64,000 bases of DNA, taken from the NCBI GenBank assembly GCA_030390025.1, contig CM059437.1:54622001-54686000 (forward strand). The letters are read 5' to 3'. Every line of letters starts with the position of its first letter. Positions within the stretch are counted from its first letter, which is position 1. Position numbers and translations under genes: made by a program. The notes below the pieces were generated by a model. The model searched no databases. It was given only the letters and a program-made list of their open reading frames with translations, and was not told the DNA's origin. Of the stretch, positions 421-37,467 are shown piece after piece. This stretch comes from Squalus acanthias (taxonomy: Eukaryota).

Positions 421-1340
421 TAAGTCGGTGTCCATTGGTTAGCGACCCTCCTCTCAGTGAAAATGCTTACTTTTTATTTACCCCTCATAATTTTGAACAC
501 CAATACTAAATCGACCTTTAACTTGCTCTGATCTAAGGAGAACAATCCTACCTTCTCTAGTCTCGCCACATAATTGAAGTCCCTCATCTCTTGTACTATT
601 CTGGTAATCTCCTCTGCACCCTGTCCAAGGCCTCGACATCAACTCTAAACTGAGGTGCCTAGAATTGGACACAATACTCCAGCTGAGGCTTAACCAGTGG
701 TTTGTAAAGATTTAGCATAACTTCCTTGCGTTTGTACTCTATACAGCTTTGTATAAAAACAAGTATCCCCTATAAATTTTTAACAGCATTATCAACTTGT
801 CCTGCCGCCTTCAAATATTCCTGTATGCAAAACCCCACGTATCTCTGTTCCTGCACCCCATTTAAAATTGTACCATTTAATTTATATTGGTTCTCTTCAT
901 CATTCCTTTTAAAATGCTATCAATTTGTAATTCACTGCATTAAATTTAATCTGCACTGTGCCTTCACATTTCGCCCATCTGTCTATGCCCTCTTACTGTC
1001 TGTGACTATCCTCCTCACTGTTTATTGCATTTCCAAGTTATGTGTCATCTGCAAACTTTGAAAGTATGCCCCCTATACTCAAGTCCAGGTCAATAATGTA
1101 CTTCAAAAAGAGCATTAGTTCTAATACAGACCCCTGGTTGATGCCACTGTACACTTCCCTCCAATCTGAAAAACAACCGTTCACCACTACCCTCTGCTTT
1201 CTATTTCTTAGGCAATTTAGTGTCCAGGCTGCCACTACCCAATTAATCCCATGGGCTTCAATTTTGCTAACAAGTCTATTATGTGGCAGTTTAACAAACG
1301 CCTTTTCAAAGTCTATATACACATCATCAACCGCACTACT
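421..1340 (-). mobile_element. Degenerate CR1 LINE ORF2 3' fragment
   Basis: Translation 1038-1439 contains YIDFEKAFVKLPHNRL and QGSVLE...SKFADDT, which are RT motifs. Paralog at ~39700-40880. Confidence 0.85.
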
Positions 1341-1539
1341 CTCAGTCTGATCATTATTACATATTCGCAATGAGAGCAACATAACATTATTATGATATCT
1401 ATCTGACTTCTTACAGAGATCAGTATCAACAAAGAACACTAAAGGGATACAGATTATGTGATTAGTGTAAAAGTGAATGTTAAAACCATGATACTTTGCT
1501 GGACTGGTTTCAGTAAAAAGTGCCAGTGGAAGTGTAATT

Positions 1540-4500
1540 ACATAAGAACAAAACGTAAGAAAGAGGAGAAGGAGTAGGCCATTTGACCTTTGAGCCTGCT
1601 CCGCAGTTCAAGAAGATCATGGCTGATATTCTACCTCATCACCATATTCCTGCACTATCCCCATATCCCTTGATTCCATTAATACTCAAAAATCTATCGA
1701 TCTCTGTCTTGAATATACTCAACGACTGTGCCTCCACAGCACTCTGGGGTAGAGAATTCCGATGATTCATCACCCTCTGAGTGGGAGAAATTCCCCCCTC
1801 ATCTGAGTCCTAAATGGCCTAAAACTTATTCTGAGACTGTGACCCCTAGTTCTAGATGCCCCAGGAGGGGAAACATCCTCCCTGCATCTACCCTGTCAAG
1901 CCGTGTAAGAATTTATATGGTTCAATTACATCACCTCTCATGCTTCTAAACTATGTATGCAAAGTATGTAAAAAGAAAAAGATTAGTGAAGACAAATGTA
2001 GGTCCCTTACAGTCAGAAACGGGAAAATTTATAATGGGGAACAAGTAAATGGCTGAGCAATTAAACAAATACTTTGGTTCTGTCTTCACAGAAGAGGACA
2101 CAAACAACTTTCCAAAAATGCTAGGGAACCAAGGGTCTACTGAAAAGGAGGAATTAAAGGAAATTAGTATTAGCAAAAAATAGTGCTGCAGAAATTAATA
2201 AGACTGAAAGCCGATAAATCCCTAGGGACTGATAATCTGCATCCCAGAGTACTAAAAGAGGTAGCCATGGAAATAGTGAATGCATTGGTTGTCATCTTCC
2301 AAAATTCTATAGGTTATGGAACATTTCCTTCAGATTGGAGGGTGGCAAAGGTAACCCCACTATTTAAAAAAGGAGATAAAGTCAAAACAGGGAACTACAG
2401 ACTGGTTAGCCTAACATCAGTATTGGGAAAAATGCTAGATTCTATTATAAAGGATGTGATAACAGGACACTTAGAAAATATCAACGGGATTAGACAAAGT
2501 CAACATGGATTTGTGAAAAAGAAATCGTGTTTGACAAACCTACTGGAGATTTTTGAGGATATTTCTGGTAGAATAGATAAGGGAAAACGAGTGGATGTGG
2601 TGTATTTGAATTTTCAGAAGGCCTTTGATAAAGTCACACATAAGAGGTTAGTGTGCAAAACTTAAGCACATGTGATTGGGTGTAATATACTGGCATTGAT
2701 TGAAAATTGGTTAACAAACAGGAAACAGAGAGTAGGAATAAATGGGTCTTTTTCGAGGTGGCAGACGGTGACTAGTGGGGTTCCGCAGGGATCAGTGCTT
2801 GGGCCCCAGCTATTCACAATATATATCAATGATTTGGATGAGGGAACCAAATGTAATATATCCAAGTTTGCTGACGACACGAAACTAGGTGGGATTGTGA
2901 GTTGTGAGGAGGATGCAAAGAGGGTTCAAGGTGATTTAAACAAGTTGAGTGAGTGGGCAAATACATGGCAGATGCAGTATAACGTGGATAAATGTGAAGT
3001 TATCCAATTCGGTAGGAAAAACAGAAAGGCAGAGTATTATTTAAATGATGATAGATTGGGAACTGTTAACGTACAGATGGACGTGGGTGTCCTTGTACAC
3101 CAGTCACTAAAAGCAAACATGCAGGTGTAGCAAGCAGTTAGGAAGGCAAATGGTATGTTGGCCTTCATTGCAAGAGGATTTGAGTACAGGAGCAAGGATG
3201 TCTTACTACAGTTATACAGGGCTTTGGTGAGACCACACCTGGAGTACCGTGTGCAGTTTTGGTCTTCTTACCGAATAAAGGATATACTTGCCATAGAGGG
3301 AGTGCAGCGAAAGTTCACCAGACTGAGCCTGTGATGGCAGGACTGGCGTATGAGGAGAGATTGGGTCGACTAGGCCTGTATTCATTAGAATTTAAACGAA
3401 TGAGAGGGAACTCATTGAAACGTATAGAACTCTGACAGGGCTAGAGAGACTGAATACAGGGGGGATGTATCCCCTGGCTGGAGGGTCTAGAACGAGGGGT
3501 CACAGTCTCAGGATATGTGATAAGATATTTAGGACTGAGATGAGGAGAAATTTTTTCACTCAGACGGTGGTGAACCAGTGGAATTTTCTACAACAGAAGG
3601 CTGTGGAGGCCAAGTCACTGAATATATTTAAGAAGGAGATAGATAGATTTCTAGACACAAAATGCATCAAGGGGTATGGGGAGAGAGCGGGAATATGGTA
3701 TTGAGATAGAGCATCAGCCATGATCATATTGAATGGTGTAGCAGGCTCGAAAGGCCGAATGGCCTACTCCTGCTCCTATTTTTCTAACTCTAGAGAATAT
3801 AGGCCTAGTCTACTCAATCTCTCCTCATAGGACAATCCCCCCATCACAGGAACCAGTCTGGTGAAACTTCGTTGCCCTCCCTCTATGGCAAGTATATCCT
3901 TTCTTAGGTAAGGGGACCAGAACAGTACACAATACTCCAGGTGTGGTCTCAACAGGGCCCTGCATAATTGCAGTAAGATGTCTTTACTCTTATACTCAAA
4001 TCCTCGTGTAATAAAGCCCAACATACCATTTGCTTTCCTAATTGCTTGCTGTACCTGCATGTTAACTTTTGTGATTCGTGTACAAGGACACCCAGGTCCC
4101 ACTAAAGCTCAACATTTCCCAATCTATTACCATTTTAAAAATACTCTGCATTTCTATTTTTCCTACCGAAGTGGATAATTTCACATTTCTCCACCTTATA
4201 TTCCATTTCCATGTTCTTCCCCACTCACTTAGCCTGTCTATATCCCCTTGAAGCCTCTTTGCATCCTCCTCAATACTTACATTCCCACCCATCTTTGTAT
4301 CATCAGCAAACTTGAATATATTACATTTGGTCCCCTCATCCAAATCATTGATGTAGATTGTAAATAGCTGAGGCCCAAGCACTGATCCCTGTGGCACCCC
4401 ACTAGTTACAGCCTGCCAGTCCAAAAATGACCCGTTTATTCCTACGCTCTGTTTTCTGTCCGTTAACCAATCCTCAATCCATGCTAGTATATTGCCCCCA

Positions 4501-5880
4501 ATCCCATAAGCTCTAATTTTCTTTAATAACCTCTTGTGTGGCACCTTATCGAATGCCTTCTGAAAATCCAAATACACCACATCCACTGTATCCCCCATAT
4601 CTATTCCATTATTTACAACCTCAAACAACTCTAACAGATTTGTCAAACACGATTTCCCATTCATAAATCCGTGTTGACTCGGCCCAATCCTATTATTATT
4701 TTCAAAGTGCCCTGTTCCCACGTCCTTAACAATAGATTCTAACATTTTCCCAACTACTGGTGTCAGGCTAACTGGTCTGTAGTTCCCCGTTTTCTTCCTC
4801 CCCCACTTTCATAAATAGTGGGATTACATATGTTACCGTCCAACCCGTGGGAACCATTCTAGAATCTATGAAATTTTGGAAAATGACAACAAATGCATCC
4901 ACTATCTCTATAGCCACCTCATTCAAAACCCTAGGATATAAACCATCAGGTCCAGAGGATATATCAGCTTTCAGTCCCATTAATTTCTCCAGCACTATTT
5001 TGTTACTAATACTAATTTATTTCAGTTCCTCATTCTCGCTGGAGCCTTGGTTCTCCACTATTTCATGGAAGTTTTTTGCGTCCTTTACTACATGGTTATT
5101 AATTAACCCTTTCTCGTTGCACAATACTACATCTAAAATGACCTGTACCCTAGTTGGTTCCTCAACATACTGATCTAGAAATCTATCTTGCATACATTCC
5201 ATGAATTCGTCCTCCACACTATTACTGCAAATTTGGTTTGCCCAGTCTATATGTAGATTAAAGTTCCCCCTGTATTACCCTTGTTGCATGCACCTCTAAT
5301 TTACTGATTCATACACTGCCCTACATTACAACTATGGTTTGGAGGCCTACAAACAACTGCCACCATTGTTTTCTGCTCCTTGCTGTTTCTTAGCTCCACC
5401 TAAACTGATTCTACTTCTTGATTTTCGGAGCTAAGATCCTTTCTCTCTACTGTCTTTATCCCATCCTTTATTATCAGGGCTACGCCTCCTCCTTTCCCAT
5501 TTTCTTCTAAAAGTTACTTATCCTTGAATAATCAGTTTCCAACCTTCGTCACTTTGCAACCATGTCCCCGTTATGTCGATTCGATCAAACCTGTTAATTT
5601 CTATCTGCGCGATTAATACATCTATTTTGTTGGGAATGCTTCGCGCATGCAGATATAGTCACTTTAGCTTTGACTTATTTCTATTTTTCCCTGATGTCAC
5701 CTAAGTCACAGATGCCTTCTTACCTTTGTTACTCTCTCTGACCCTTCCTGACCCACTCTGCTTATTTTTATCCAAAACTCTACTCTGCTCTAGAGCCGTG
5801 ACATTTCTCTCGCTGCTGTTAATTTACACTTTCCTGAAGCCTCCCACCCACCCCCCTTCATTAGTTTAAAGCCCGGTCTA
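1540..5880 (-). mobile_element. Degenerate CR1 LINE (ORF1 end to 3' tail) interrupted by a second CR1
   Basis: 3' tail and UTR at 1540-1950. RT fragments at 3776-4995 (DFQKAFDKVPH, QGSVLGPQLF, KFADDT). Endonuclease and ORF1-end remnants extend to ~5880. The sequence resumes at ~3785 where it stopped at ~1950. Confidence 0.85.
1950..3785 (+). mobile_element. 5'-truncated CR1 LINE nested in the opposite-strand CR1
   Basis: ORF2 fragments at 2183-2665, 2672-3130 and 3465-3704 carry RT motifs and the C-terminal GYGERAGIWY. Several in-frame stops. The 3' UTR ends at ~3785. Confidence 0.9.
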
Positions 5881-6189: not shown

Positions 6190-8075
6190 CACTAAAACAG
6201 ATTATCTGGTCATTATCACATTGCTGTTTGTGACATAAAGGATTCGGACTGGGGAAGCGGAAAAACAATTTTTAAAAATTGCAGATGACACCAATTGGGG
6301 GATATATTTGATACTGAAGAATACTGTGACAAAATACCAGATGTTAGTAAACTTGCAGAATAGGCGTGTAAATGGTGAATGGATTACATTGCAGATAAGT
6401 ATGAGGTGGTGCTTTCTGGTCGGGGGAATAAGAAGGCCACAAACCCCTTGGAAAATAAGGGGGAAAAATTCAGTTGGTTGCGCCTCCCATTAGCGCCTTA
6501 AGAGGGCGCTAATGGGGCGCAAAGCAGCTCACGCCCAGGTGCGGCGAAGTTTGCGCCGCTTGCGAAATTAACTAGACATTTTGTGGCGGCGCTAAACACT
6601 ACCGCCACGATCTCCTGCGCCAGCAGATCGTGACATCAGTCGAGTGCGCAATGCCCCGGTATTGCCCCGGAGCGGATATTGGATGGCGCCCCCTGCCTTA
6701 CCACCTGACGCTAGCAACGACAGGTTGAGGGGAGCATTCTGCAGTCATGAAGGGAAAGGGGGAGCGCTATTTAAAGGTGACCGCTTCCTGCCTTTTATTG
6801 TTGGTGCCATTTTTTAACTACGCATTCTGAGAGAGAGAGAGAGAGAGAGACTTCTGGAGAGATTCAATGTTGTGTGAAGGAGTTTTGGGTACTGAGCAGC
6901 ACTTTGCAGGTTCATTTTGATTTGCCATTCCTTGTATCGATTTAGAAGAGAGTGTGGGGGCTGCACTCTGAGCTCTTTGCCTGGTACTCTCCATTGTTCT
7001 TTCCAGCAGATTTGATGTGCAGGTCTCTCCAGGCCGAGATTCAAGGCTGCAATGAGCAGGATGTGGATAGAAAGCAAGATTAACCATCCCCTTTAAGAAC
7101 TGGCCCGTGCCATTGTGTGTGTGTTCCATTGCTGACTGACATTACATGAACTTCGCCAGCGGTCTGAGGTAGCGCCTCGCTCCTTGGCCTTTGCGCCTGA
7201 ACACAGGTGTGAAGCGCCTGATTTAGCGCTCCAATCACCTCCAGGGGTGATAAAAGTCAAGTTTGCAGTCAGTGGCGATAATTAGCGCCAAGCGTTAATC
7301 TTTGCGCCCGGCCGACAATTGCGCCCCAAATGGGGCGATAATGAATTTCTCCCACTAAGAGTCTAAATGGAGTAAAGGAGCAAAGGGATCTAGGGGTATA
7401 AATACACAAATCATTAAAAAATTGCAACGCAAGTTAGCAAGGCCATAACAAATGCAAACAAAGCACTGTGGTTTATTTTCAGAGGAATGGAATTGAAAAG
7501 CAGGGAATTTATGTGAAACTTGTCTAGAACTTTGGTTAGACCACACTTAAAAGTGTGTACAGTTCCGATCTCCATATTACAAAAAGGATATAGGCACTGG
7601 AGAAAGTGCAAAAAAGATTTATAAGGATGATACCAGAACTGCGAGGTTATAACTGTCACGAAGGACTGGTCAGGTAGGTGCTCTTTTCCCTAGAAACTAA
7701 AGGCTGAGGGGTGAACTAATAGAGGTCTTTAAATTTATGAAGGGGTTTGATACCATAGAGTAGAGGAGATGTTTCCGTTTTTGGGGCGTCCAAAACTGGG
7801 CGCCATAAATATGATTGTCACTAATAAATCCAATAAAGAATTCAGGAGAAACTTCTTTCCCAAGAGTGTAGCTATCGCATGGAGTACTTGAGGCGAATAG
7901 CACAAACGTCTTTAATATGAATCTAACTACATCCATGAGGTTGAAAGGAATAGAAGGATATGCAGATAGGCTTAGATGAAATAGGTTAGGAGAAGGCTCA
8001 TGTGGAGCAGAAACACCGTCACAGACCAGTTGGGCCTGATGGCCTGTGCTGTAAATTCTATGTAATTCTATGAAT
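6190..8075 (+). mobile_element. Old CR1 ORF2 3' fragment, split by a Harbinger non-autonomous copy in A
   Basis: Degenerate TTGCAGATGACAC (ADD motif), TTGGTTAGACCACAC, and a (TTCTATG)-type tail at ~8055-8075. Uninterrupted paralog at ~47760-48745. Confidence 0.7.
6459..7355 (+). mobile_element. Non-autonomous Harbinger element (divergent subfamily), 897 bp
   Basis: Imperfect TIRs GGGGGAAAAATTCA / TGAATTTCTCCCAC. TAA TSD at 6456-6458 and 7356-7358. Single TAA at the empty site 48027-48029. Confidence 0.93.
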
Positions 8076-8479
8076 TTAAACAAATGTGATTAAAATATAT
8101 ATTGTAAGATATCTTTCCCAAAATGTCAAAATAATACTAATCTATCGTGTCTGCAACCTTGCTATTCCGACTGATTTCACTGACTTGACATACAATGTGC
8201 AGAATGTCATAAAGAACATAACCTCATTATTTCGCCACATTTAAAACATTGCTAAAGATTGGTACAGAGGAATCGGTCAGAAAAGAATAACAGCACCTGA
8301 GATAATGGCAGAGTCATTTTATTACACTACGGTATGTGTAACGTTACACTGAAACTTTGATCAGTTCAGGGTTTACACACTGTAAAATACAAACAGCGGA
8401 ATACAGCCGACAAACTGCACATCTGTTGTGATTTGAAATGTTACACTTAAAGTCAAACATGTACTATCTGAATACGGAA

Positions 8480-8485
8480 TTTATT
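8480..8485 (-). terminator. Polyadenylation signal AATAAA of IgL cluster A
   Basis: TTTATT on + strand, 53 nt past the C-exon stop. Conserved in B (49148-49153). Confidence 0.7.
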
Positions 8486-8537
8486 TTTAAAGAGAATTTA
8501 ATAATGGTATAACAAATTAATACATAAGATTCTTGAA

Positions 8538-8860
8538 TCACATACAGCTGGATCTGGCGATACTTGTTTTAAGCGCGTTTGCCTGAGTCTCGTGTTTAAC
8601 CACACAGGAGTAAAGCTCGTGTGAGTTCCACTCTGAGGCTGGCAGAGTCAGATAACTGCTCACACTGAACGTGTTGTCCGTCTCCTGCTGGACCCGACTG
8701 GTCTCAACACCATTCCCTTTCACACTGCCATCTACAGTCCACTCAATCTCCACAGCGCCCGGGTTAAAACCATTCACCAAACACACCAAAGTCGCCGTGT
8801 TCTTTGCTGCGATTTGATCGGATGAAGGCGGAAGGACAGACACCGAGGGGGCCCGCGGAT
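8538..8860 (-). CDS. IGLC: Ig light chain constant exon, lambda/type II, cluster A
   Basis: Acceptor TTCGTTTCAG at 8870-8861, phase 1. Peptide (N)PRAPSVSVLPPSSDQIAAKNTATLVCLVNGFNPGAVEIEWTVDG...YSCVVKHETQ...SSCM*. C1-set Cys/Trp/Cys and penultimate Cys present. Confidence 0.96.
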
Positions 8861-9265
8861 CTGAAACGAAGAATCCAATTAAAGAAGATCCATACTAAAT
8901 TGAAATAAAAAGTCGGAATCAATGTGTTACTTTCTTCAAATCTTACAATAAAATTCGGCGTCACTTTACAAAGGTGTATGAAATGTAATATAACGTAAGC
9001 ACATTAGTGTCAATTATACAATCACAGGGGCCCGCAGTTCTAGAACGTTTATAACCTGAGAACTTTATCCTATTTTTCCTACATGGAAAGGAACGTGTAA
9101 CAAATACTTCCATGGAAATATGATCCAAACTCTGTGCATATATTATAAATCGAATTTAATATCTGTCCACTAAGACATAATTTTTCTTTCAGTTTTGTAC
9201 TATTTCGTTTCCCCGTTAAACTTTAGCGCGTCATTATAAATGTTTCCACATTTCACAGAGTCATA

Positions 9266-10159
9266 GGGGTAAAAATTCACTTGGTTGCGCCACCTGTTAG
9301 CGCCTTAAGAGGGCGCTAATGAGGCGCAAAGCCACTAACGCCCGGGCGCAGCGATGTTTGCGCCGCTCGAGAACTTAACTTGAGATTGTGCGGCGGCGCT
9401 AAAACTTACCGCTGCGACCACCTGCGCGCGCAGATTGTGACGTCATTCCATGGTGCAACGCCCTTGGGGCGCCCCGTAGCGGAAATTGAGTGGCGCCCCC
9501 TGCCTTACCGCCTGGCGCTTCCAATGACCAGAAGACTGGAACGCTATCAATCGCTGTGGGGCTGGGGGGGGCGCTATTTAAAGGGGGCCTCTTCCTGTCT
9601 TTTATTGTTGGTGGCATTTTTGAACTACGCATTCTGAGAGAGAGAGGGAGAGACTTCTGGAGAGATTCAACGTTGTGTGAAGGAGTTTTTGGGTACTGAG
9701 CAGCACTTTGCAGGTTCATTTTGATTTGCCATTCCTTGTATCGATTTAGCAGAGTCCGTGGGAGCTGCACTCTGAGCTCTTCGCCTGGTGCTCTCCATTG
9801 TTCTTTCCAGCACATTTGATGTGCAAGTCTCTCCAGGTCGAGATTCAAGGCAGCAATGAACAGGATGTGGATGGAAAGCAAGATTAACCATCCCCTTTAA
9901 GAACTGGCCCGTGCCATTGTGAGTGTGTTCCATTGCTGACTGACATTACATGAGCTTCGCCAGCGCTCCGAGTTAGCGCCTCACTGCTCGGCCTTTGCGC
10001 CTTAAGAGAGGTGTGCAGCGCCTGCTTTAGCGCTCCACTCACCTCCCGGGGCGGTAAAAGTGAAGTTTCCTGTCAGTGCCGATAATTAGCGCCAGGCGCT
10101 AATATTTGCGTCCGGACGATATTTGCGCCCCAAATGGGGCGCGACCTAATTTCTACCCC
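9266..10159 (+). mobile_element. Non-autonomous Harbinger element in the J-C intron, 894 bp
   Basis: TIRs GGGGTAAAAATT / AATTTCTACCCC. ATA TSD at 9263-9265 and 10160-10162. Empty site GAGTCATGGAATCTC at ~49926-49940. Both ends match 22467-26662. Confidence 0.95.
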
Positions 10160-10162
10160 ATA

Positions 10163-10640
10163 AAATCTCACAGCACAGGCGTCCATTCGACCCATCGTGC
10201 CTTTGCCGGCTGTTTGAAAGAGCTTTCCAATTAGTCCCACCGCCCCCCGCCCCCCGCCCCTTCTCCTTCCCCATAGCCCTGCACATTTTTCCTTTCCAAG
10301 TATTTATCCAATTCCCTTTTAAATGTTACTATTGAATCTGCTTCCACCACCCTTTCAGGTAGTGCATCCCAGTTCATAACAACTTGCTGTGTGACAAATT
10401 TCTCCTCATCTCCACCATGCTTCTTTTGCCAATTACCAGCTAGTGCAAAAAGTTGCTCCTTATCTGCTCTATCAAAACCCTTCATAATTTAGAACACCTC
10501 GTTAAATCTCCCTTTAATCTTCTCTGCTCTAAGGAGAACAATCCCAGTTTCTCTAGTCTCTCTATTTAACTGAAGTTCCTCATCTCTGGTACGACGGGTA
10601 CCATAAATCCCTTCTGCATCCCCTCCAAGACGTTGACATC
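10163..10640 (-). mobile_element. CR1 3' fragment in the J-C intron
   Basis: Translation WDALPERVVEADSIVTFKRELDKYL...GYGE is a CR1 ORF2 C-terminus. The tail repeat is split by the Harbinger copy. Paralog at ~49922-50390. Confidence 0.85.
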
Positions 10641-11330
10641 ACATTTGTGAAAGAACATGGTCAGAAAATATTTTGTTTAAATATCACTGAGCACACAGTA
10701 TTACATCGAAATTAAGGTCCTACTCAATCTGCCATAGACATTGTGTCTCAGGAGCTGCGATTTAAAGAGAATGTAAAAAGCAATAAAGCCGAATTTGGGA
10801 TAAATATTGGAACCAATAGTGACTACAAAGATACTGTAATGTTCAGCTCAAACACGCTAATGAATTTACTAATAAGCTCGATTCGTGCTTCTTTCTCAAA
10901 TATTGCACTACTTTTGACGAAAATATTGGACTAATATCTGGGCTTGTGTACCATCACTGCTATGGCCGCTCTGCTCGGCTCGAAATAGCTGTTTGGAGAC
11001 ATCTTCGGGGTCAGTGTGTCACAAAAGATGTCATTAAAGAGAAACAGGCTACAACAAATAACGGCTGTTATTGTGAATAACATTATCCCAATAATAACAT
11101 CAATATGAAAGTAATGCCAATAATATTAAATATTAATACTCCTGTGATAAAACAATGACATATAACCCAGTGTAAGAATGTTGAAGCCGGACTGTCATCA
11201 TCTCCTGACTCTTTAGATGACCATTCGCGCCGAACATATGTTACAAGCACCAGCTGTCAATAACAAACCCTCGATAAATGCTTTATGTAATGTAAAGCAC
11301 CGAAGAAAAAACTTAAACGTATATTTTTTT

Positions 11331-12156
11331 CATTAAAGCACTGCCGCGATTTAATAAAATGGTAGAATTAGAGGCGGGGTCGCTTCAAATGGTTCTGGCA
11401 TTGAGGCATCACGTCAGCTGCAGCGGCGCGTCTCACTAATACCAGGTTTGCGCGGATCGGTTTAAGAATCTATTGCTATTCTGAGGCGTTCGCCTTGGAA
11501 CCCAGAACTTCCCTTTGCTTTCTATACAATTTGGAGGCTGAAACTGGGAGAAGTCCGGAAGAACCACCAACCCCTATTGTCACAGTTGGTATAATCCCCC
11601 GGCAGCGCCCGGAGTTTAGCTGAACTTTCTGGTACTGAAATATCTGGAGTCCCGTGGGATTATTCAACAGGTTTTACTGCCAGTTTAAATTATTGTCGAA
11701 ACGCTAAGACTTTGACATTTGTACCGGAGATGTATCCTTAATGTAACAACTGATAATATAAATGAAGATTTTTGCTGTTTCATGATAGCTAATTTCACCC
11801 TGATGTAGTCGAATAACCACGTCAAATAGCGATAGAGTATCCACATTTTTGATAATATTACTCCACTGACTAAATCTAATCACACAACCTATGCAAAGCG
11901 TAATGGAGTGAGTATAAGTGCGGGTACAAAAATCAGAAAAGCTATTTCGAGACATTATTCACACAAAATTATCGATAGGAAGATAAAAAACCCATAACTT
12001 GTTAAAAATAGATACCCTGACAATTGGAAGAATCATGTACTGAATGGTTTTCACTCAGTTATGAGACGAGTGGGAGAGAGTTACAACAAGTCGCTACAGT
12101 ATCATCCCGCAGTCTCAATCCGAGAATGATGATTAAATCGCGGCAGTGCTTTAATG
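11331..12156. repeat. Perfect 25-bp inverted repeat pair CATTAAAGCACTGCCGCGATTTAAT in the J-C intron (possible TTAA-flanked Kolobok/T2-like element)
   Basis: 11331-11355 is the exact reverse complement of 12132-12156. The identical pair in B is at 51084-51108 and 51891-51915. Confidence 0.85.
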
Positions 12157-13001
12157 GGAATGCATTAGTTGTCGATTTGAAACTTTTCAATTTGTGTCTA
12201 TAGACTTTTACCGAGAACTTATTCGATGGGGTTATAACGGCCGGGTGTAAGCCAGTCTGAAAAATTATGCGCGGTTCACAGAATCATAGAATTGTACAGC
12301 TCCGAAGGCAACGGAATTCTCCCGACCCAGCACTTTGATAGATCTGTCCACTTAGTGCGATTCCCAAACCTTTCTTTTGTTATTTTTTACATGTTTATCA
12401 ACTTCCCTTTTAAGCGCGTTCTTTTAGTAATGCTGTTAAATTTATGTCCTCTGGTTACCGACTGACCGATCAGTGAAAATTGTTTTTTTTAATTTGTTGC
12501 AACTGAATGACTCATGATTCTGAACATTTCTAGCAGATCACTCAGCAAACTTCGAGTGAAATGAGCTTCTCTCCTCTCTTGACTTAACTAAAACCTATCG
12601 GTACCAGTATAATATTAAAAAATGGCTTCTGTTACCTCTCCAAGGCGTTGACACCTCCCTAAAATCGTGCGCCCTTTCTGTTTTGCTATCTCTTAAATAT
12701 CACTGGTCGCTGTTCCACAACTTCGGTATAAATATATTTTGAGGCCAATAATCTTGAGTTGCAGTAATTCAGTCGACCAATAAATTTATTTCAATGGATT
12801 TTTGATATTTCATTCGCAGTGTTAGTAATGTTAGGGAACAGTTTGATGCGCGATTTGGAAACCGAACAGAAAAAAAGATTGACGCTGTGAGATACTAGGA
12901 CACGGATAGTTTTTTGATCGAGGGAATTTAGCCCAAAGAAACAAAAACCGAAAACTGGTAACTGAATAAACCAAAGTTTGCATTGCGAATAATTTACTTA
13001 C

Positions 13002-13340
13002 TGCCCAAATTCAGCTTCGTTCCTCTCCCGAAAAAGATATAATAGGGACTGCTACGCCTCGCAGCGCAGTAATAATCGGCGGCGTCCTCCGATTGCACAT
13101 TGGTGATGGTTAAATGCATCCTCGATGAGTCCGCAGACCCGGTGAATCGATCTGGAATCCCCGAAGGTCTGCTGCTCCCATACCAAACAAGCACAGGGGC
13201 ACTGCCGGGTTTCTGCCAGTACCAGCTGGTGTAGTAGCTGCCTATGCTGCCTTCGGACAGGGTACAAGTGATTTTAACGGTTTTGCCCGGGGATGTTGAG
13301 ATGGACGGTGGCTGAGTCAGGACAGGATCCGCGTTTGTAC
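13002..13340 (-). CDS. IGLV: Germline-joined VJ exon of Ig lambda/type II light chain, cluster A
   Basis: Acceptor TTTCACCAG at 13349-13341. (S)[25 protein letters not shown]...WYWQKPG...[29 protein letters not shown] followed by donor GTAAGT (13001-12996). V and J are contiguous and in frame, with no RSS. Confidence 0.96.
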
Positions 13341-13483
13341 CTGGTGAAATAACAAGTTCTTGATTAGTCACAATTTGTGCCCTTCGAATATTGCTTATAA
13401 TTCAGGTCTAATCAACTCAATCACAAGAAAAAACCAAGGCAATGTAAAAAGCATCGATATTGAAGGTTACGTCCTGTACTTAC

Positions 13484-13532
13484 TGTGGAGACAGAACATC
13501 AGCGCGGCGAGAACTCGAACGCATTCAGTCAT
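13484..13532 (-). CDS. Ig light chain leader exon, cluster A
   Basis: ATG at 13532, MTECVRVLAALMFCLH plus 1 nt, donor GTAAGT at 13483-13478. The 143-bp intron is phase-compatible with the VJ exon. Confidence 0.92.
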
Positions 13533-13655
13533 GGTGAAGGTTCTGGTGAAGATCTGAAACAAAATATTTCCTGACACGAATGTAGTTCTGAGCTCTTACT
13601 AAACCTCTCCTTAAGAAGTTTCAAACAACGCAACGTCATTGAATACTAATTATTC

Positions 13656-13663
13656 ATGCAAAT
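13656..13663 (-). promoter_or_regulatory. Ig octamer ATTTGCAT (light-chain orientation), cluster A promoter
   Basis: ATGCAAAT on + strand, ~125 nt upstream of the leader ATG. Conserved in B. A second near-octamer ATTTGCAC is at 13970-13977. Confidence 0.88.
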
Positions 13664-13978
13664 ATCCATTCAAATGACCTCGCGCTATAGGAGTCCAAGT
13701 CTTGCGTTGACTGGCATTTGCGCGATGCACATTCCAGCCATTAAAAAGAGAAACAGAGTCAAAGCCACAGAATAAAACACGAGAATGGTTGAATATAGCA
13801 AATTAAAAGGGGAGGTGAAAAAAGGAGGAACGATTACGTCACCCCAGGCTTCTGTTTTAGAAGCCTGAAGATTATAATAGCGAGGGGAAGCTGAGGGCGG
13901 TAATCGGTTCAATAGCTATGGGGTCCTCGGGAAGAGAAACTGGATAAGTAGATTTTAAGATGCGATTTCATTTGCACG

Positions 13979-14021
13979 TAGATAGATAGATAGATAGATA
14001 GATAGAGATAGAGAGAGAGAG
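13979..14021. repeat. (TAGA)n/(GA)n microsatellite upstream of the IgL promoter
   Basis: Directly visible. The variant in B is at ~53739-53780. Confidence 0.9.
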
Positions 14022-14676
14022 TTACCGACCGACAGACCAGGAAACATTCGACACTTGCAGAGAATTAACCGTTTGGAGAAAAATATGGAAGCGGACACGG
14101 AGCTTTTTGCAAGAAATTTTATTAATATAGCTGAAAGATCTATTTGAGGTCGCAGGAGAAACTGAGTTTCACTATACCAATATATGGAATGACTAAGGCT
14201 GAATGAATCAAATGTAACAGTTGCTTGTTTCGACTTGTGATAGATATAAAATACTGCTGCGTGAAATCCCGCTGTGGGATGTCATGGTTGAACCTTTGTA
14301 CGAAATTCCATTGCTTCCTATTTGAATGGGAGAGTTAACCCTTTAAAAGCAGCAATCACAAATACATTTCAATCAAATATGTTAAATGTCAGTATCATAT
14401 CTCACAGAGCGATTTCACTGCAACTGTCTTTGAAAAATTGAATAAGTAAAATTTTCATTGTCCAGCTGAAGGTCACAGAAGAGAGCAAGATGTAACGATT
14501 CAATCATTGCACTGGGAGAGTACTGACGGTTGTGAGTTCAGATAGGGTCCCATAAATAAATGTCTCCGAATCTTTATATACATAGGCTTAAATCAGCCTT
14601 ATTATTTTATGCTATTATTTCACCTCACAATTGAAGAGGACCGAATCAATAAAATTAGACAAGTCCATTGACAATA

Positions 14677-17350: not shown

Positions 17351-18564
17351 CATAAAAGTCCTCATATGGAGTAATAACTGATAGCCTGCATCCTTCTTAA
17401 AAGCTGCCTAAATCTTCTTTGCTCCATCATGTGCTGCTCCTGCTCCTCCATGATGTAAGTATACAGAGGTATGTCTATAGGGAATGTCATCCACAGGAGC
17501 CTGCTACTGAGAGAGTTCCTTCGTCGTGTATCATAGAGAATAACACAAACAGAAGTTTTAATTCATGATAATTAGTTAATGGAGGGAGTTTCCCTTCTGC
17601 AGTTTACACCCATGCTCATTATGTGTTCGCAGGAAATAAACCAGGATATCGCCAATGGTGACCACTGGTTAATGATCTGAAGCTTTAAAAACGACATCAG
17701 GGGGTTTCACAAATAGGGCTTGAAATTATTTAACTTTTCGGCAATTACTCCCAATTTCACCCTCTCACCGGTTCGCTGTGCAGCTGAAGGGTCTGACTAG
17801 CGATCCTTGTGACAGTCCCATTCAATGGGGTTTCTCGAATTGGAACTGAATGCACCCTAGTCTATTTTTGCAGAATTGCAAAATAAATGGCCAAAATTAG
17901 TGCTTAGAGGCACGTATTGTTTTAGGAATTAGTGCAGGAATGCTTAACATTTTCCTCTGTGCGCAGAACAGTTGATCTCATTTCAGGACATTTTAAGAAC
18001 GCTACAACAAGCCCCAGCGCCCCCGCTCCAGCAAAGGGAAAAGAGGGCGAAATTACTACTTCCTATCTTTATTCTCTGCTGGAAGTGCTCACCTACGGAT
18101 GGGCGGCGAGCTTAAGGCCAAATTCGCCTTTGACGCCACAATGGGAAAGCCCGTATGGTCTCAGGAAGGAATCTTGGCCACAGTGACAGGAAAGAGTATA
18201 CAGGTCTAGAGGAGAAATTTGTTAGAAAAAAGGTCGGGGAAAATAGAAACAATTGTACAGGATGCTAAAGGAAAATGACGCGCAGCAGAGCTGAAGCAAA
18301 ACGAAACAAAAAGAGGGAGAACAAAAATTGACCAATATACAATGGAAAGTCAAATTTCGAAAATATACTTTCACAAGTCCAGGCAGAAAAGATCCAAATC
18401 CCTTATCTATCCGAGCATTAGAGCAATTCTTTATGTTCTTTATCTTAACGAGGACACATTAATACACTAGTAATGAGGACAAGGGATCCTCCTTAAATTA
18501 TGGTTCCAGTGGACTACAAGTTTGAAACTGCTAAGAGGAAGACCGAGCCACAACCTGTCACATT

Positions 18565-21176: not shown

Positions 21177-22774
21177 GCTGAGGCCCCAATATACATCCCT
21201 GGGGAATGCCATTTGTCTTTTCCCGCCCATCAGTACACGAAACATTTATACCTACTCTATATCTCCTACCTCCCAATCAATTACCAATTAGTGGCTACCT
21301 TATATTTATGTCTCCCTGTTCTCGACTCATCCACAAATGGAAACACTTTATCCACGTTCCCCCTATCTAACTCCTTCATAATTTTAAAGACCTCAATCAA
21401 GTCTCCTTTTAGCATCCTCTTTCAGAGATAAGCGACCAGCCTGTATATTTTTTCCTGAAAGTTGCATCCTCCAAATTCTGTTAACATCCTTGAAACTCTT
21501 TTCTGAATTCTCTCCAGTGCTTCAATGTCTTTTTTCGAGCATGGAGACCAGAATACTGCAAAGTACTCCAAGTGTGTTCTCACCTAAATTCTATATAAAT
21601 GTAACATTACCTTTCTGCTTTTGTATTCTATTCTCTTAGAAAGATCCCCAGTACTTTGATTGCACCATTTATGCACATAACAACTTGTGCTGCTCCTTTT
21701 AGCGATTTATGCATCTGCAGTCCCAATCAGTCTGAACAAAGTAGATTATGCACTAAAAGTATACCGAGTTTGTGATTAGTGTTAAGGTGAATTTACGGAG
21801 TGCGATTCTTATCTGAGCGTCAGCGAATTTGTAGTTGAGTTGCTGCTAATATCGCTTGCTTCAATATAACTATTATTCAGCAATAATTAACAGAATCGAG
21901 TCGTTACTAAAGAAAGCATGCAATGGCAGAAATTGTACCGTGGTAGGTACGAGGTATCTAAAAGGAAGGCGGTCACAGAGTTTCTCCTGAATTTGTGTAA
22001 CCAGATGATTTAGAAAAATTATAACACGTGCTTTGAATTGTTCACATAAACACACGAACGCAAGGTTCAGCTTCTTGCCCACACGGAGGAAGTCAGTCAA
22101 GTGCGGTTTAAACAGAGTGCTGCGAGTTGGGTGAGTCAGGGAGTCAGGAGAAGACAGAAGACAGAGCGACGAAGGACAGAGTGGAGACCCTTTCCACCTC
22201 CACCACGCCTGCAGCTACAAGCTACAACTACAGCAACTTCTACTGCTGAGGTGCCATAGGGGAGAGAGGAGAGGGGAGAGGAAAGGAGACCAATAACAAC
22301 AACAGAGGGAAGCAATTCCATCACTGCCTCCCCAACTGGTCTCCATTACGAGAGAGGGAGAGAGGGGAAACAAAACCAACACCTGCTTGGAAGGAGGGAG
22401 AGCGAGCCATCGAGGAGAATAACATCTAGAGGTGGGTGTTAAAAAGGGCACTCTCCAAAAGACTTTGGGGTAAAAATTCACTTGGTTGCGCCTCCCGTTA
22501 GCGCCTTAAGAGGGCGCTAATGGGGCGTTAAGCCGCTAACGCCCGGGCGCAGCGCTGTTTGCGCCGCTCGAGAACTTAACTTGAGATTGTGTGGCGGCGC
22601 TAAAACTTACCGCTGCGACCACCTGCGCGCGCAGATTGTGACGTCATTCCATGGTGCAACGCCCTTGGGGCGCCCCGGAGCGGAAATTGAGTGGCGCCCC
22701 CTGCCTTACCGCCTGGCGCATCCAACGACCGGAAGACTGGAACGTTATCAATCGGTGTGGGGCTGGGGGGGCGC

Positions 22775-22782
22775 TATTTAAA
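22775..22782 (+). promoter_or_regulatory. Candidate TATA box (TATTTAAA) of the Harbinger transposase promoter
   Basis: ~200 nt upstream of ATG 22977, preceded by a G-rich box. Retained in all five non-autonomous copies. Confidence 0.5.
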
Positions 22783-22976
22783 GGGGGCCTCTTCCTGTCT
22801 TTTTCTGTGGTCGACATTTATGCACCACTCGTTCTGAGAGAGAGAGAGAGATTCGGAGAGAGAGAGAGAGAGACTTCTACATTGACTCAACATTTGTGAG
22901 GTAGTTTTGCCTAGTTCATCCTAACTTTGTTGCTACTTTAGTTGCTGTACCTCATTACTTTTCTGGCAAAGAGAAT

Positions 22977-24137
22977 ATGGGGGCTGCAATGATTGGGGGC
23001 GACGTCCTGCTCCAGCTGAATCGGAGGATAGTGAGACGCAGACAGAGAGTGGCAATAATGGCCAGACGGAGGAGGGCCATCAGGCGCATGTACAGGAGAG
23101 CTTACCCTCCCAGGGTATATCGTGAACAGCTCTCCTACATCCATATGTCCGAGGAGCTGTGTTTGCGAAGGCTGCGATTCAGCAAGGAGGTGGTCACTGA
23201 GCTCTGCCACCTGCTGCAGCCAGATCTGCAGCCTCAGCTGAGGTCCAGGACGTCTCTGTCGGTGGCAGTGAAGGTCACAGTGGCTTTGAACTTCTACGCC
23301 ACTGGCTCATTCCAAGCTGCTGTTGGGGACCTCGCCAATATCTCCCAGTTTGCGGTGCATCGCTGCATCCGGCAGGTCACCAATGCCCTCTTCAGAAGGA
23401 GACGAGACTTCATCTATTTCCCTATGACCCCAGACAAGCAGCGTGACCGTGCTCTGGGCTTTGCGAGGGTAGCGGGCTTCCCCATGGTGCAGGGCACCAT
23501 TGACTGCACGCATGTGGCTTTGCGTGCTCCGCGAGAGAATGCAGAGGAATTCAGGAACAGAAAGGGGTTCCATTCCTTGAATGTGCAGTTGGTCTGTGAC
23601 CACAGACAGGTGATACTCGCTGTCAATGCCCACTATCCGGGCAGCTGCCATGCTGCTTTCATCCTGCGCCAGACTACTGTGGCAGAAGTTTTCGAGGCAC
23701 CGCATCAGCCAGTTGGTTGGCTTCTCGGGGACAAGGGGTACGCATTGAGCACCTGGCTGATGACACCGCTCCGTACGCCAAACACCCCTGCTGAGCTGCG
23801 GTACAATGAAAGCCATCAAGCAACCAGGAACATTATTGAGCGCACAATCGGCGTGCTGAAACAACGGTTCCGCTGTCTGGACCATTCCGGAGGAGCCCTG
23901 CAGTACTCGCCTGAGCAAGTTTCGAACTTCGTAGTCGTGTGCTGCATGTTGCACAACATGGCAATCCTCAGGACCCAGCCAATGCCACCAGGCCTTGTAG
24001 CACCACCAGAGGAGGAGGAGGAAGAGGAGGAAGAGGACGAGGACGATGATCATCAGCAGCACCAAGGCAGGAGGGCGGCCCACAATGGTCAAACTGCAAG
24101 GGCCGTCCGTCAACGACTAATAGCAAGCCGCTTCTAG
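22977..24137 (+). CDS. Harbinger DDE transposase (HARBI1-like), 386 aa, open frame
   Basis: RLRFSKE, ALNFYATGSFQ, GTIDCTH, NRKGFHSLNVQLVCD, PGSCH, LLGDKGY, YNESHQATRNIIERTIGVLKQRFRCL, CCMLHN and an acidic tail. Confidence 0.96.
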   Translation: MGAAMIGGDVLLQLNRRIVRRRQRVAIMARRRRAIRRMYRRAYPPRVYREQLSYIHMSEELCLRRLRFSKEVVTELCHLLQPDLQPQLRSRTSLSVAVKVTVALNFYATGSFQAAVGDLANISQFAVHRCIRQVTNALFRRRRDFIYFPMTPDKQRDRALGFARVAGFPMVQGTIDCTHVALRAPRENAEEFRNRKGFHSLNVQLVCDHRQVILAVNAHYPGSCHAAFILRQTTVAEVFEAPHQPVGWLLGDKGYALSTWLMTPLRTPNTPAELRYNESHQATRNIIERTIGVLKQRFRCLDHSGGALQYSPEQVSNFVVVCCMLHNMAILRTQPMPPGLVAPPEEEEEEEEEDEDDDHQQHQGRRAAHNGQTARAVRQRLIASRF

Positions 24138-24431
24138 GGCCCCTGCCATTGCTACAAACACTAATCAACCCAGCACGCAACCCCTAAGCCGGCCAAGGCA
24201 CCAATAATTCCAACCACCAGCCATGTATATTTTGAATACAGAAACTTATTTATTTTACAAACTCTGTGTGTGTCAATTCCTCATGACAAACTCATAGAAA
24301 TAAACACAAAAAAACAGTCAATAACATAACTGGTTCTCACAACCTGGAGATAATGTCCAAAACACTAAACAAAAGTTGGACCATGAACCTCGGCCTTTAA
24401 TAAAAAAATGACCAGCATTTTGGCACACCTC

Positions 24432-25429
24432 CTACTTTTTGCCCTTCGAGGGTGATCTCCTTCCCTTGTGCACTTCCCCCCTTCTAACCCTACTGCTCCT
24501 CCGTAATGGGACCTCAGTGGCTGCAGCAAGGCTGGTGGAAGGCTGCTGCTCGTCAGACCCTGACACTGCAGATGCCCCTGAAGGACGGCCTCGACCACTT
24601 CTGGGCCTGGAGGGCCCGGCTGCAGACTGCACCAACTCTGCATGGGCGGCAGCAGTCTGTCCTACAGGCGGTGGCAAGTGCAGTGGAGAAGTGACAGTGT
24701 TGGCAGCAGGAATGCTGTCATCGTGAGAGAGGACAGCAACTCCCTGCTCGCCCGACACACTGGCACTCCCACGGGGCAGCACTTCAGCATCTGGAGCAAT
24801 TTGCCGGAGAACAGATTGCTGGCCTGCTGCGGCGCGGTGACAGCCCCGGGGACATGTGCACGAACCATCGAGGATGGCAGCAGTCAGTGCTCGCGTGGCC
24901 TCAATCTGAGTCTGCATGAGAGCAGTCTCAGATGGGTTCCTGGCAGCCAGTGACTGAATTGCAGCACTAAGCTTTAGTGTGGCATCCGCCTGTGCTACAG
25001 CGAAGTGCTTCACACTCCTTGCCAGTGATTCAATGCATTCTGGCACCCTTCCCACTGCACCCATGAGCTCAGTGTGCATGCCCACCGCCTGGCTGTTCAT
25101 TTCTGCAATCAGCCGCTCCTCCTCTGCGTCCATTGCAGTAGGAGTGTCTGGCATACTCTCCCTCTGGGGAGAAGGCCCCCGTTCTTCCCTACCCCCCCCC
25201 CCACCCCCCCCCCCCCCATGGCGTTGCTGCAGCCCGCTGGGTCCTGGAGCTTCACCATCATCAGCCCCTTCCCCCCTGCTCCCCTCCGGGGAAGGCGTGT
25301 TCCCAGTGTGGGCATGGGCTTCCTCGGGAGAGGATGGCACTGATGCTCCGGCTTCCTCTTCCTCCTCAGCTGCAGCATCACTCCCAGTGGCAACTTCAGG
25401 GCCCGTCTCCTCAGCTGGTGAATCACCAT
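24432..25429 (-). CDS. Harbinger Myb/SANT partner gene, exon 3 (low-complexity and coiled-coil C-terminus)
   Basis: Acceptor CCTGCTTTCAG at 25440-25430. Phase-1 entry gives DGDSPAEETGPEV..., continuous with ORF 24432-25340 and ending in a basic tail RRSSRVRR...KGKK. Confidence 0.7.
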
Positions 25430-25588
25430 CTGAAAGCAGGGAGGTACAAGAGTGGCTTTAGCGTGAGGACAGGGTGGCAGTAAGGGAGGAATAAGTGCAG
25501 CGAGTTAGCAAGTTGGATTGAAAGTGTCAAAGGCTGGTATTGTGAGGGACAAGTGGAAGGACAGAGGACAAAAAGGTGATGACCTTAC

Positions 25589-25729
25589 CATTGCTGTCCA
25601 CAACGGGGTCGGCGTCTCCAGTGGCGACGGGACCGTGTGGACGCGCTCCTCCAGATCGCTGAGGGGTTGCAGCTGAAGCCGCCCTCCACCCGTCCGTTGC
25701 TGCTGTCTCCGATTATGAGCCAGCTTAGC
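25589..25729 (-). CDS. Harbinger Myb/SANT partner gene, exon 2 (apparent frameshift)
   Basis: Acceptor TTTTCTTGCAG at 25740-25730, AKLAHNRRQQQRTGGG...LSDLEERV, donor GTAAGG at 25588-25583. Confidence 0.75.
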
Positions 25730-25760
25730 CTGCAAGAAAAAGGACAGCATCTGAGTAAAT

Positions 25761-25927
25761 ATACAGCCATGGTCTTGCCTGATGTGCCTCCCATAGGTGA
25801 ATAGCCCTTACTGTATGCAGCCATGCTCTTGCCTGATGTGCCTCCCATAGGTGAATAACCCTTACTGTATACAGCCATGGTCTTGCCTGATGTGCCTCCC
25901 ATAGGTGAATAGCCCTTACTGTATGCA
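25761..25927. repeat. Three tandem 54-bp repeats in intron 1 of the Myb/SANT gene
   Basis: Unit ATACAGCCATGGTCTTGCCTGATGTGCCTCCCATAGGTGAATAGCCCTTACTGT, repeated three times with few differences. Confidence 0.92.
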
Positions 25928-26067
25928 AAGTGTGGAATGTGTGTGTGTGTTTGATGAAAGGGCCATAGGTGTTGGATGAGTGTTGTGCATTGGGATTTTA
26001 AGACCCTCTGGCCATAGAGTGAGGTTGAGATGGAGGGATGGAGAGGTATTGAGAAAAAGCCACTCAC

Positions 26068-26304
26068 CCTGACGACCCGAGTGAGGTCGTTGAACTTTTT
26101 GCGGCATTGAACATGGGTCCTGGGCACCATGCTCCTGGAGGAGACGCTCTGAGCCACCTCCCTCCACACTCTTCTGAACTCGCGTGGCAAAGGCCTCCTG
26201 CCACTCTCCGGGAACAGCATGCATCGTCTGCGCTCCACTGCGTCAACCAGAGCATCCAAGGCCCGCTCGGTGAAGCGATGAGCGCGTTCTCTCACCCTCT
26301 CCAG
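26068..26304 (-). CDS. Harbinger Myb/SANT-like DNA-binding domain, exon 1
   Basis: RAHRFTERALDALVDAV...VWREVAQSVSS...RTHVQCRKKFNDL is a trihelix pattern. Donor GTGAGT at 26067-26062. The presumed start codon position holds CTG (26304-26302). Confidence 0.88.
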
Positions 26305-27291
26305 GCTTGGCAGCAAAATGGATTACAGGTCTCTCCAGGCTGAGATTCAAGGCTGCAATGAGCAGGGTGTGGCTGGGGAGCAAGTGCCCCCCCCCCGCTT
26401 TAAGAAGTGTCCGGCGCCATTGTGGCTGTGTTCCCTCGCTAACTGGCAGCAGCTGCGCTGCGCTCGTGCGCTGAGTTAGCGCCTCACTCCTTGGCCTTTG
26501 CGCCTTAAGAGAGGTGTGCAGCGCCTAATTTAGCGCTCCACTCACCTCCCGGGGCGGTAAAAGTGAAGTTTCCTGTCAGTGCTGATAATTAGCGCCAGGC
26601 GCTAATATTTGCGTCCGGACGATATTTGCGCCCCAAATGGGGCGCGACCTAATTTCTACCCCTTTGTATTTGAGGTGGGGGGAGGAAAGAAGAAGGAGAA
26701 GACCGGGATAACAAGGGGTGTGTGTTGGTGTGTGTGGCTCTTGCTAATAACTAGGCCGCACACACCATCAACAAGCACCCCTTGCCTATTGCTTCACCTG
26801 GGACAGCTGGAGCTGCCCAGGCAAAGTCATCAATCTATTTCCCCATCTATAACATCGTTAAGACCTGGTGGTGGACTGAGCCTGGGCATGTCCAGCTTTA
26901 TTTTCCCAGGTGAAGACATCTTCTCCCCCCACCAGAAGAACATCAACAAAGACTATAATTAACATCGGAGAGTGCCCCCCCCCCTGGAAGCACCCACCCA
27001 CCCACTATCCTGAGTGGCGAACAGGCCCCTGCGGCCTCCCTCCTTCCTTCCCCCTATCTCTCTCTCTCTCTCTGACTCTCTCTCCAACGAGGCACCTCTA
27101 ATTTTATTAATTCCCCAATTGAGCAGAGAGGAGAAGGCCCCTCTCCCAATTCCAATCATCAAAGGGAGAGGTGTGCCTTCATTTTTAAAACAACCCCCTC
27201 TGCTCGGGAAAAGACAAAAAAAAACAAGGCCATTTCAACCATCACCCGGCCTGTGACTTGGGGTGAGTGCAGCCCTTTATACCACCTCAGT

Positions 27292-35267: not shown

Positions 35268-35278
35268 TATGACTCTAA

Positions 35279-36179: not shown

Positions 36180-36190
36180 TATGACTCTAA

Positions 36191-37083: not shown

Positions 37084-37099
37084 TAAGTCTATTGTTTCC

Positions 37100-37467
37100 G
37101 TCAAGAAATGTCAAACTTTTGTCACCCATCGTGTCTGTAAGCTAGCTATTCCGACTGATTTCACATGGAAGAGTCATTTTATTACACTGTGGTATTTGTA
37201 ACGTTAAACTGACACTTTGATCAGTGCAGGGTGAACACTCGGTAAAATACAAACAGCGGCATGCAGCGGATAAACAGTACATCTGTTGTCATTTGCATTG
37301 TTCCACGTACAATCAAACATGTAATGTCCGAATACGGAATTTATTTTAAAGAAACTTTACTAATGGTATAATAGATCAATACATTAGATTCTCAATCAGA
37401 TACAGCTGGATTTCGCGATACTTGATTGAAGCGGGTTTGCCTGAGTCTCGTGTTTAACCACGCAGGA
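37100..37467 (-). pseudogene. Remnant of a third Ig light chain C exon (last 23 codons, stop, 3' flank)
   Basis: 37467-37396 reads SCVVKHETQANPLQSSIAKSSCI*. The downstream flank is homologous to 8120-8537, including the polyA signal. Confidence 0.9.

Follow-up and report, generated by a model that had tools for sequence, protein, structure and literature searches.

What produced, and what has kept, a perfect 25-bp inverted repeat around 776 bp of the J-C intron of a shark immunoglobulin light-chain gene? The question arises from a window of 64,000 nucleotides of Squalus acanthias (GenBank assembly GCA_030390025.1, contig CM059437.1, positions 54,622,001 to 54,686,000 of the forward strand), that is, the whole stretch of DNA that was analysed, in whose own positions all features are given here. 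Comparison within the window delimits two light-chain clusters, which differ by 4.6% in substitutions over five collinear blocks and each of which holds an octamer, a leader, an open VJ exon and a C exon:

about 419-22145, minus strand: light-chain cluster A
about 39956-60810, minus strand: light-chain cluster B
13656..13663, no strand assigned: promoter octamer of cluster A (that of cluster B is at 53414)
13484..13532, minus strand: leader exon, from its sequence and donor site and from a loose contig end at 13340
13002..13340, minus strand: germline-joined VJ exon of cluster A, the frame open from V through J
8861-13001, minus strand: J-C intron of cluster A, from the splice sites
8538..8860, minus strand: constant exon of cluster A, from its frame, domain and splice sites

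V-set and C1-set domains were found in the light-chain frames with Pfam, and the C domain shares 84% identity with a protein of Mustelus asterias annotated as lambda-1 light chain-like (four matches, six candidates). When the VJ protein was compared with metagenomes, one locus was obtained from 237 candidates, at 51% identity, and the intron was unmatched. We take type II light chains to be lambda, following a database name. With its germline-joined VJ, lambda-like C and one VJ-C cluster per unit the locus belongs to type II (NS3, lambda), the NS3 light chain being germline-joined and equated with type II in the available excerpts of PMC2435157 and PMC2193156. As the genes are pre-joined, there is no recombination to diversify them.

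Ten public runs from four studies cover part of 10900-12300. Four of the ten (X3, X5, X6 and X10; one per study) were compared with 10700-13450 at 80% likeness, the sequences being contigs throughout. About 95% of X3 and 55% of X5 was covered, X3 may share its source with the window, and no run is recorded as RNA, four being taken as RNA by guess. Loose contig ends in X6 place C exon sequence at the J donor (13002) and leader sequence at the V acceptor (13340); such ends at exon borders argue that the light-chain family is transcribed and spliced, cluster A not being singled out.

CDR length varies among clusters in germline DNA: contigs of X5, X6 and X10 carry 6 extra bp, inserted at 13120. 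A 3-bp deletion near 13231 (13229-13233) is present in contigs of X3, X5 and X6, and CDR1 is one codon shorter in B than in A. A third C exon 3' end with a trailer fragment, about 85% identical, lies at 37165-37467, broken off mid-exon and with no matching intron nearby. Two database proteins labelled as hypothetical proteins of Aeromonas veronii and Salmonella enterica (P0001 and P0004, from contigs of 652 and 410 bp) are light-chain constant domains of shark-like type that share 87% and 79% identity with those of the window; their bacterial labels likely reflect contamination or mislabelling.

The 25-mer occurs exactly four times in the window when up to three mismatches are allowed, with none expected from 100 shuffles:

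11331-11355, plus strand: left arm, cluster A, from the 25-mer search
12132-12156, minus strand: right arm, cluster A, which in the direction of transcription follows the J donor at a distance of 845 bp
51084-51108, plus strand: left arm, cluster B, the same 25 letters as in A
51891-51915, minus strand: right arm, cluster B, the same 25 letters as in A

The arms enclose 776 bp in A and 782 bp in B. Dinucleotide shuffling of 10650-12260 (1000 trials, self-overlapping palindromes excluded) gave perfect inverted repeats of at most 15 bp, against the 25 bp observed, and the repeat in the J-C intron of both cluster copies is real. The sequence-only reading that first described it was correct here, as in its remark that the arms are identical while adjoining bases differ between A and B (at 11321, 11357-8, 12129 and 12131). 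Each arm has ends that are complementary to one another over 6 bp, giving a frame of 6 bp, a 12-bp core and 6 bp with two TTAA, and the left arm adjoins a T run. Extension of the arms, anchored and compared with 300 shuffles each, gave p=0.19 (A) and 0.06 (B) inward and 0.82 and 0.32 outward; the borders of the repeat are sharp, and a longer, decayed inverted repeat is not significant. An Rfam search of 10600-13000 returned no match up to E=5. Exact 22-mer scans of metagenome, viral and prokaryote contigs also returned none, in collections that hold little shark DNA and have no bearing on shark copies. The sequence-only reading knew of no such repeat in shark IgL loci, and no description of it was found in a literature search in which older sandbar and horned shark papers and supplements were barely covered; older genomic papers on the type II clusters of these two sharks may describe this intron.

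The divergence between A and B was followed across the arms. Three stretches of the intron can be told apart, none with an assigned strand:

10905..11308: outer conserved block, beyond the left arm, with 4 substitutions in 392 bp (10905-11296) and an E-box at 11251
11413..11717: conserved block inside the repeat, 2 substitutions in 249 bp (11457-11705), the candidate B-cell enhancer core
11718..12131: fast-evolving interior half, 30 substitutions in the 426 bp of 11706-12131 (7.0%)

The interior as a whole carries 39 substitutions in 776 bp (5.0%) vs 112 in 2341 bp (4.8%) of unique intron, and the low-divergence zone, 10905-11705, spans the left arm. Conservation does not track the arms, and the interior evolves at the background rate. 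The repeat had been described as enclosing the most conserved block of the intron; the longest identical A/B run of the intron (210 bp, 11457-11666) does lie inside it, but the outside block is equally conserved. Elsewhere, A and B are almost identical at 4609-5400 and 17759-18560, in or beside retroelement relics, with a longest run of 249 bp (5117-5365), possibly through gene conversion between the clusters. Given such quiet stretches, low A/B divergence alone may reflect gene conversion.

The identity of all four arms, together with their retained CpGs, had been offered as a possible sign of selection, and this argument fails on both counts. Pairs of 25-mers 801 bp apart are invariant between A and B in 1927 of 14963 cases in the duplication and in 328 of 1944 in the intron (13-17%). 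The arms show no change in 50 bp amid divergent flanks (20 substitutions in 200 bp, 10%), and under an assumed even rate of 7.5-11% their invariance would have a probability of 0.3-2%. This rarity does not hold because A/B differences cluster: among 2838 25-mers flanked by 8-12 differences, 805 are invariant, which gives about 8% for two arms. Since the two copies differ by only 4.6%, arm invariance between them adds little. CpG observed/expected ratios are 0.8-1.1 over about 8300-14300 (one retroelement bin, 0.39) vs 0.37-0.59 in the far flanks, and decayed CpGs between A and B number 8 of 165 inside the gene (4.8%) compared with 47 of 375 outside it (12.5%). The whole gene is CpG-spared, so that the surviving arm CpGs are no argument for selection. 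CpG retention spans the whole unit, from the C exon to a point some 0.7 kb upstream of the octamer, despite AT-richness and in the B copy too; this base composition suggests a gene-wide domain that may carry little germline methylation.

What counts against neutrality is age. Four perfect arms would survive neutrally with a probability of 10% if they formed at the split of A and B, 3.7% with 2% extra divergence per lineage, and 0.8% with 5%; survival thus drops fast if the repeat predates the split. This drop is among the points in favour of selection keeping the arms for pairing, with a 25-bp stem in nascent RNA or exposed single-stranded DNA looping out 776 nt. Such a stem could shorten the intron, hide two sense-strand ATTAAA hexamers, or delimit the hypermutation zone on its 3' side, at an edge that could lie about 1.4 kb from the leader; in a variant of this idea, the arms are two facing protein sites that loop the enhancer. 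The stem is indeed predicted in the sense RNA (-40 kcal/mol, pair probabilities 0.79-1.0), the whole region folds with z=-2.9 vs 20 shuffles, the arms are unchanged over 50 bp at 10% local divergence, and they hold two of the four AATAAA/ATTAAA hexamers on the sense strand of 10650-13000. However, any perfect repeat folds, so the duplex energy is no sign of function, and the invariance comes down to the 8% given above once clustered differences are allowed for. Diverged paralog contigs retain both conserved blocks and pass over the left-arm zone. Binding by proteins would not call for complementarity at 25 of 25 positions, and the Pax5-like core in the arm lacks the second half-site of the consensus; as a Pax5 site it was rejected, the core occurring in Harbinger repeats as well. 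Of the long-range stem proposed in the sequence-only reading, the predicted pairing stands and the argument from selection does not.

Human intronic long-range pairings of similar size and spread, the PCCRs, have been proposed as a guard against intronic polyadenylation (PMC8052449, in excerpt). The predicted arm pairing resembles those described there as a stable intronic duplex within 10 kb, with 25 nt, less than 1 kb between arms and the strongest energy class (< -30 kcal/mol). It differs from them in that arm conservation is seen across 4.6% divergence only and in that the two copies compared show no compensatory change. Maintenance of the arms for pairing or protein binding is possible, though on the doubtful side. 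A more specific form of it, in which selection keeps the arms, whether as domesticated Kolobok-type ends or as a de novo repeat, and a 776-nt RNA or DNA loop over the enhancer tunes expression or the hypermutation boundary, we consider unlikely.

The public contigs bear on where the interior came from. Contigs of 80-85% identity match 11413-11717, or parts of it, in all four runs (X3 record 10, X5 record 19, X6 record 27, X10 record 2) and then run on unaligned, while contigs of about 81% identity match 11154-11308 in X5 (record 18) and X6 (record 26). One X3 contig joins 11266 to 11413 on the same strand, skipping 11267-11412 (depth 17.5, side 39); another, weaker, joins 11305 to 11529, also on the same strand, skipping 11306-11528 (depth 2.8, side 27). 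Both joints come from one study, and the letters between their sides are not given, so that a 25-bp arm, below the length at which a match is reported, could sit there. The collinear paralog blocks and these same-strand joints argue that the interior is resident intron DNA, common to older paralogs and in its present orientation. All eight listed joints are same-strand skips, with no strand switch and no empty site (11330 joined to 12157) among them. None of the 24 loose ends listed (225 more lie beyond these) falls at an arm, nor do any of the 40 substitutions listed (314 more beyond these) fall within one. No piece of X6 extends over the left arm (record 26 stops at 11308 with 55 letters unaligned, and explains all of the bin depth), and X10 leaves the right arm uncovered, with some short cover near the left; these gaps in X6 and X10 are not counted as evidence. 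The left-arm zone aligns less well than do the blocks on either side of it. Contig depth is not a copy number, and only a large contrast was therefore used: summed depth over the segment vs the left flank is 50-145 vs 51-155 in X3 and 36-153 vs 2-103 in X5, and it is 550-3000 over a retroelement fragment at 12264-12539.

These observations disfavour both a recent insertion and an inversion, as there is no high-copy signal, empty site or strand switch, and paralogs of about 80% identity are collinear across the left arm. A DNA transposon of recent origin, with copies still dispersed and an insertion immediately preceding the cluster duplication, would explain the perfect ends, the succession TTAA, AG...CT, TTAA, and an age limit that fits recent insertion. 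Its interior, however, is present in the 80-85%-identical paralog contigs of all four runs, joined to the outside block in X3; depth is flat, and neither dispersed copies nor empty sites of the segment were seen in the 64-kb window or at the listed contig joints, which makes this origin very improbable.

Being inverted and built on a self-complementary frame (6 bp, 12-bp core, 6 bp), the arms also resemble paired recombination sites, and could be the scars or crossover sites of a 776-bp inversion, either fixed after staggered breaks or switchable by a recombinase; some template switches, moreover, leave an inverted spacer between repeats (PMC5453318, as excerpted). Against this, A and B have the same orientation, and the paralog contigs run from outer to inner block on one strand. 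Only one orientation of the interior occurs in A, in B and among the listed joints, of which none of the eight flips; contigs drop rare forms and would miss rare somatic ones. No recombinase was found among the 13 frames scanned. We therefore regard an inversion as highly improbable. Recombination signal sequences were tried and rejected, the heptamer matching at 4 of 7 and the nonamer at 1-3 of 9 positions in all eight readings with spacings of 12 or 23.

The Kolobok-like reading, proposed on sight of the sequence, is possible in that a TTAA duplication and RR...YY termini with 19-bp repeats are present:

11337..12150, no strand assigned: Kolobok-reading unit of 814 bp, with AG...CT ends and 19-bp terminal repeats

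TTAA at 11333-11336 and 12151-12154 is the candidate target-site duplication; being palindromic, it belongs to the inverted repeat in any case. In the excerpts available, TTAA duplication and RR...YY termini are Kolobok hallmarks (PMC9587614), full-length Xenopus Koloboks all start with AG after TTAA, and AGGRR is the terminal motif of T2-MITEs, which some Xenopus Koloboks lack (PMC6004289). On this account an old non-autonomous Kolobok-type transposon entered the ancestral type II cluster and became fixed, its enhancer motifs being brought along or gained later, and its ends stayed perfect through selection or repeated arm-to-arm homogenisation. The shark segment shares with Kolobok elements and Xenopus T2-MITEs, as far as these same two sources describe them, the flanking TTAA, the AG start and AG...CT ends, the short terminal repeats and a non-coding interior; its size suits a non-autonomous element, an empty site would be an 8-bp palindrome, and the inward extension in B (p=0.06) hints weakly that the repeat was once longer and has decayed. 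It departs from them in that its end reads AGCAC, without the AGGRR of T2-MITEs, complementarity continues 2 bp past TTAA, and the interior is common to old paralogs and continuous with conserved DNA outside, so that the conserved zone spans the supposed end. In an element old enough to be common to 80%-identical paralogs the ends would be expected to have decayed, yet the duplication and the 2 bp beyond it are perfect. There is also no sign of a family, the segment having a depth like that of its flank, far from the range of the retroelement fragment, and no listed loose end at its arms. No transposase remnant was detected, the six longest of 20 short frames in the segment lacking a Pfam match. 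A literature search found no description of Kolobok in sharks, on which the accessible portions of PMC6817897 and PMC4350176 are silent either way; repeat libraries in supplements, outside the search, could include a shark Kolobok family that has these ends. On this evidence an old Kolobok-type origin appears rather improbable.

Readings as hAT, Harbinger or CACTA elements were rejected, there being no direct target duplication at the arm ends; a TA target is possible, but requires three more matching outside bases. The window does hold an apparently full-length Harbinger element at 22467-26662. It is flanked by a TTT target duplication and contains a DDE_Tnp_4 frame of 410 aa and, on the other strand, a Myb/SANT frame. 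Non-autonomous derivatives of about 0.9 kb with Harbinger ends occur at 6458-7353, 9266-10159 and 34374-37085, two of them in cluster A only and one of these inside the J-C intron. The last interval is a cluster of three derivatives, of which one is forward and two are reverse; an identical 8-bp spacer follows each of the first two, a pattern suggestive of recombination or of hopping over short distances. A 561-aa frame at 27076-29466, between the clusters, has no Pfam match and is followed by GC-rich frames; we presume that it resembles LINE ORF1.

What the conserved DNA beside and between the arms may do was approached with a scan for 22 consensus motifs, which gave two sites within the inner block:

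11650..11659, no strand assigned: perfect EBF-type palindrome (consensus TCCCNNGGGA), the same in B at 51403
11504..11515, minus strand: ETS/PU.1-like site that overlaps a kappaB-like one (9 of 10 consensus positions), the same in B

E-boxes lie at 11415 (altered in B) and 11583 in the inner block and at 11235 and 11251 in the outer one. In 5000 block shuffles, single-motif chances were 0.006 for EBF, 0.03 for ETS, 0.19 for E2A and 0.27 for the kappaB-like site; EBF, ETS and E2A together appeared in none of 5000 inner-block shuffles, as a trio picked after inspection. No perfect PU.1-IRF4 composite was found (the best, at 11631, has one mismatch), nor any MEF2 site common to A and B, a perfect match at 12002 being confined to A. 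With an A/B divergence of 0.8-1.0% in its conserved blocks and with 80-85%-identical contigs aligned at 11154-11308 and 11413-11717, the candidate module is conserved beyond neutral intron, and this conservation, combined with the EBF-, ETS- and E-box-like motifs, makes the inner shared block a candidate B-cell enhancer. The suggestion that a transposon delivered a regulatory module is thus plausible as to the module, which is not bounded by the arms; as to the vehicle, depth, joints and paralogs leave a young transposon unsupported.

The lambda enhancers of mammals and of chicken are located 3' of C, whereas the shark lambda-type block is in the J-C intron, where it resembles the kappa and heavy-chain intron enhancers in position. 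None of these enhancers is known to be flanked by a perfect inverted repeat. Likewise, no shark light-chain intronic enhancer and no structural device bracketing an Ig enhancer was found in the literature searched, older shark papers and supplements being barely covered. Ig enhancers in which E-box, kappaB, MEF2 and ETS sites occur direct hypermutation to its targets (PMC3972084, in excerpt). Like the Ig enhancers and DIVAC elements treated in the excerpted parts of that paper (chicken, human and mouse lambda; IgH and kappa intron), the shark block is short, conserved and non-coding and lies near an Ig gene; it has consensus matches for E-box, ETS/PU.1-like and kappaB-like motifs, each weak when taken singly. 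It differs from the lambda enhancers described there in having an EBF-type palindrome in place of a perfect PU.1-IRF4 composite and a shared MEF2 site.

From the observed repeat, gene context, divergence profile and collinear paralog blocks we infer, as the best reading and at a probability of about 0.42, a lineage-limited inverted duplication, formed by a template switch beside the candidate enhancer. An intronic regulatory module of about 550-800 bp (10905/11154-11717) would predate the A/B duplication and, judging from its conservation and motifs, would most likely be a B-cell enhancer that drives Ig transcription and targets hypermutation. A template switch in replication or repair would then have generated, in place, a reverse copy of one arm at about 0.8 kb from the original, in the lineage leading to A and B and shortly before the cluster duplication. 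The arms would be identical by virtue of being young and lying within a CpG-spared gene, and their predicted pairing in pre-mRNA would be a neutral by-product. Template switches generate inverted repeats in primate genomes (PMC5453318) and favour poly(dA:dT) tracts (PMC7954356), both in the parts available to us. The shark repeat resembles the duplications described in those parts as a short reverse-complement copy that yields a perfect inverted repeat with sharp ends, in an AT-rich context with a T run and with a spacer that need not be inverted. It differs in the length of its spacer: the surveys, as excerpted, report templates within about 100 nt and a median copied length of 12 (PMC7954356), and a switch over 776 nt is an extrapolation from them. 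Three further points count against an inverted duplication. The repeat must have formed just before the cluster duplication, the exact Kolobok-like TTAA and AG...CT ends are left to chance, and the arms are perfect amid locally divergent DNA.

Should the arms instead be under selection, they would constitute a structural device around an Ig enhancer. If the inverted duplication is the correct reading, the repeat would be a mutational by-product, and the useful result would be a mapped candidate enhancer at about 11154-11717. This candidate would offer a route to testing how pre-joined clusters are activated and targeted for hypermutation, and a test of whether an intronic light-chain enhancer is ancestral.
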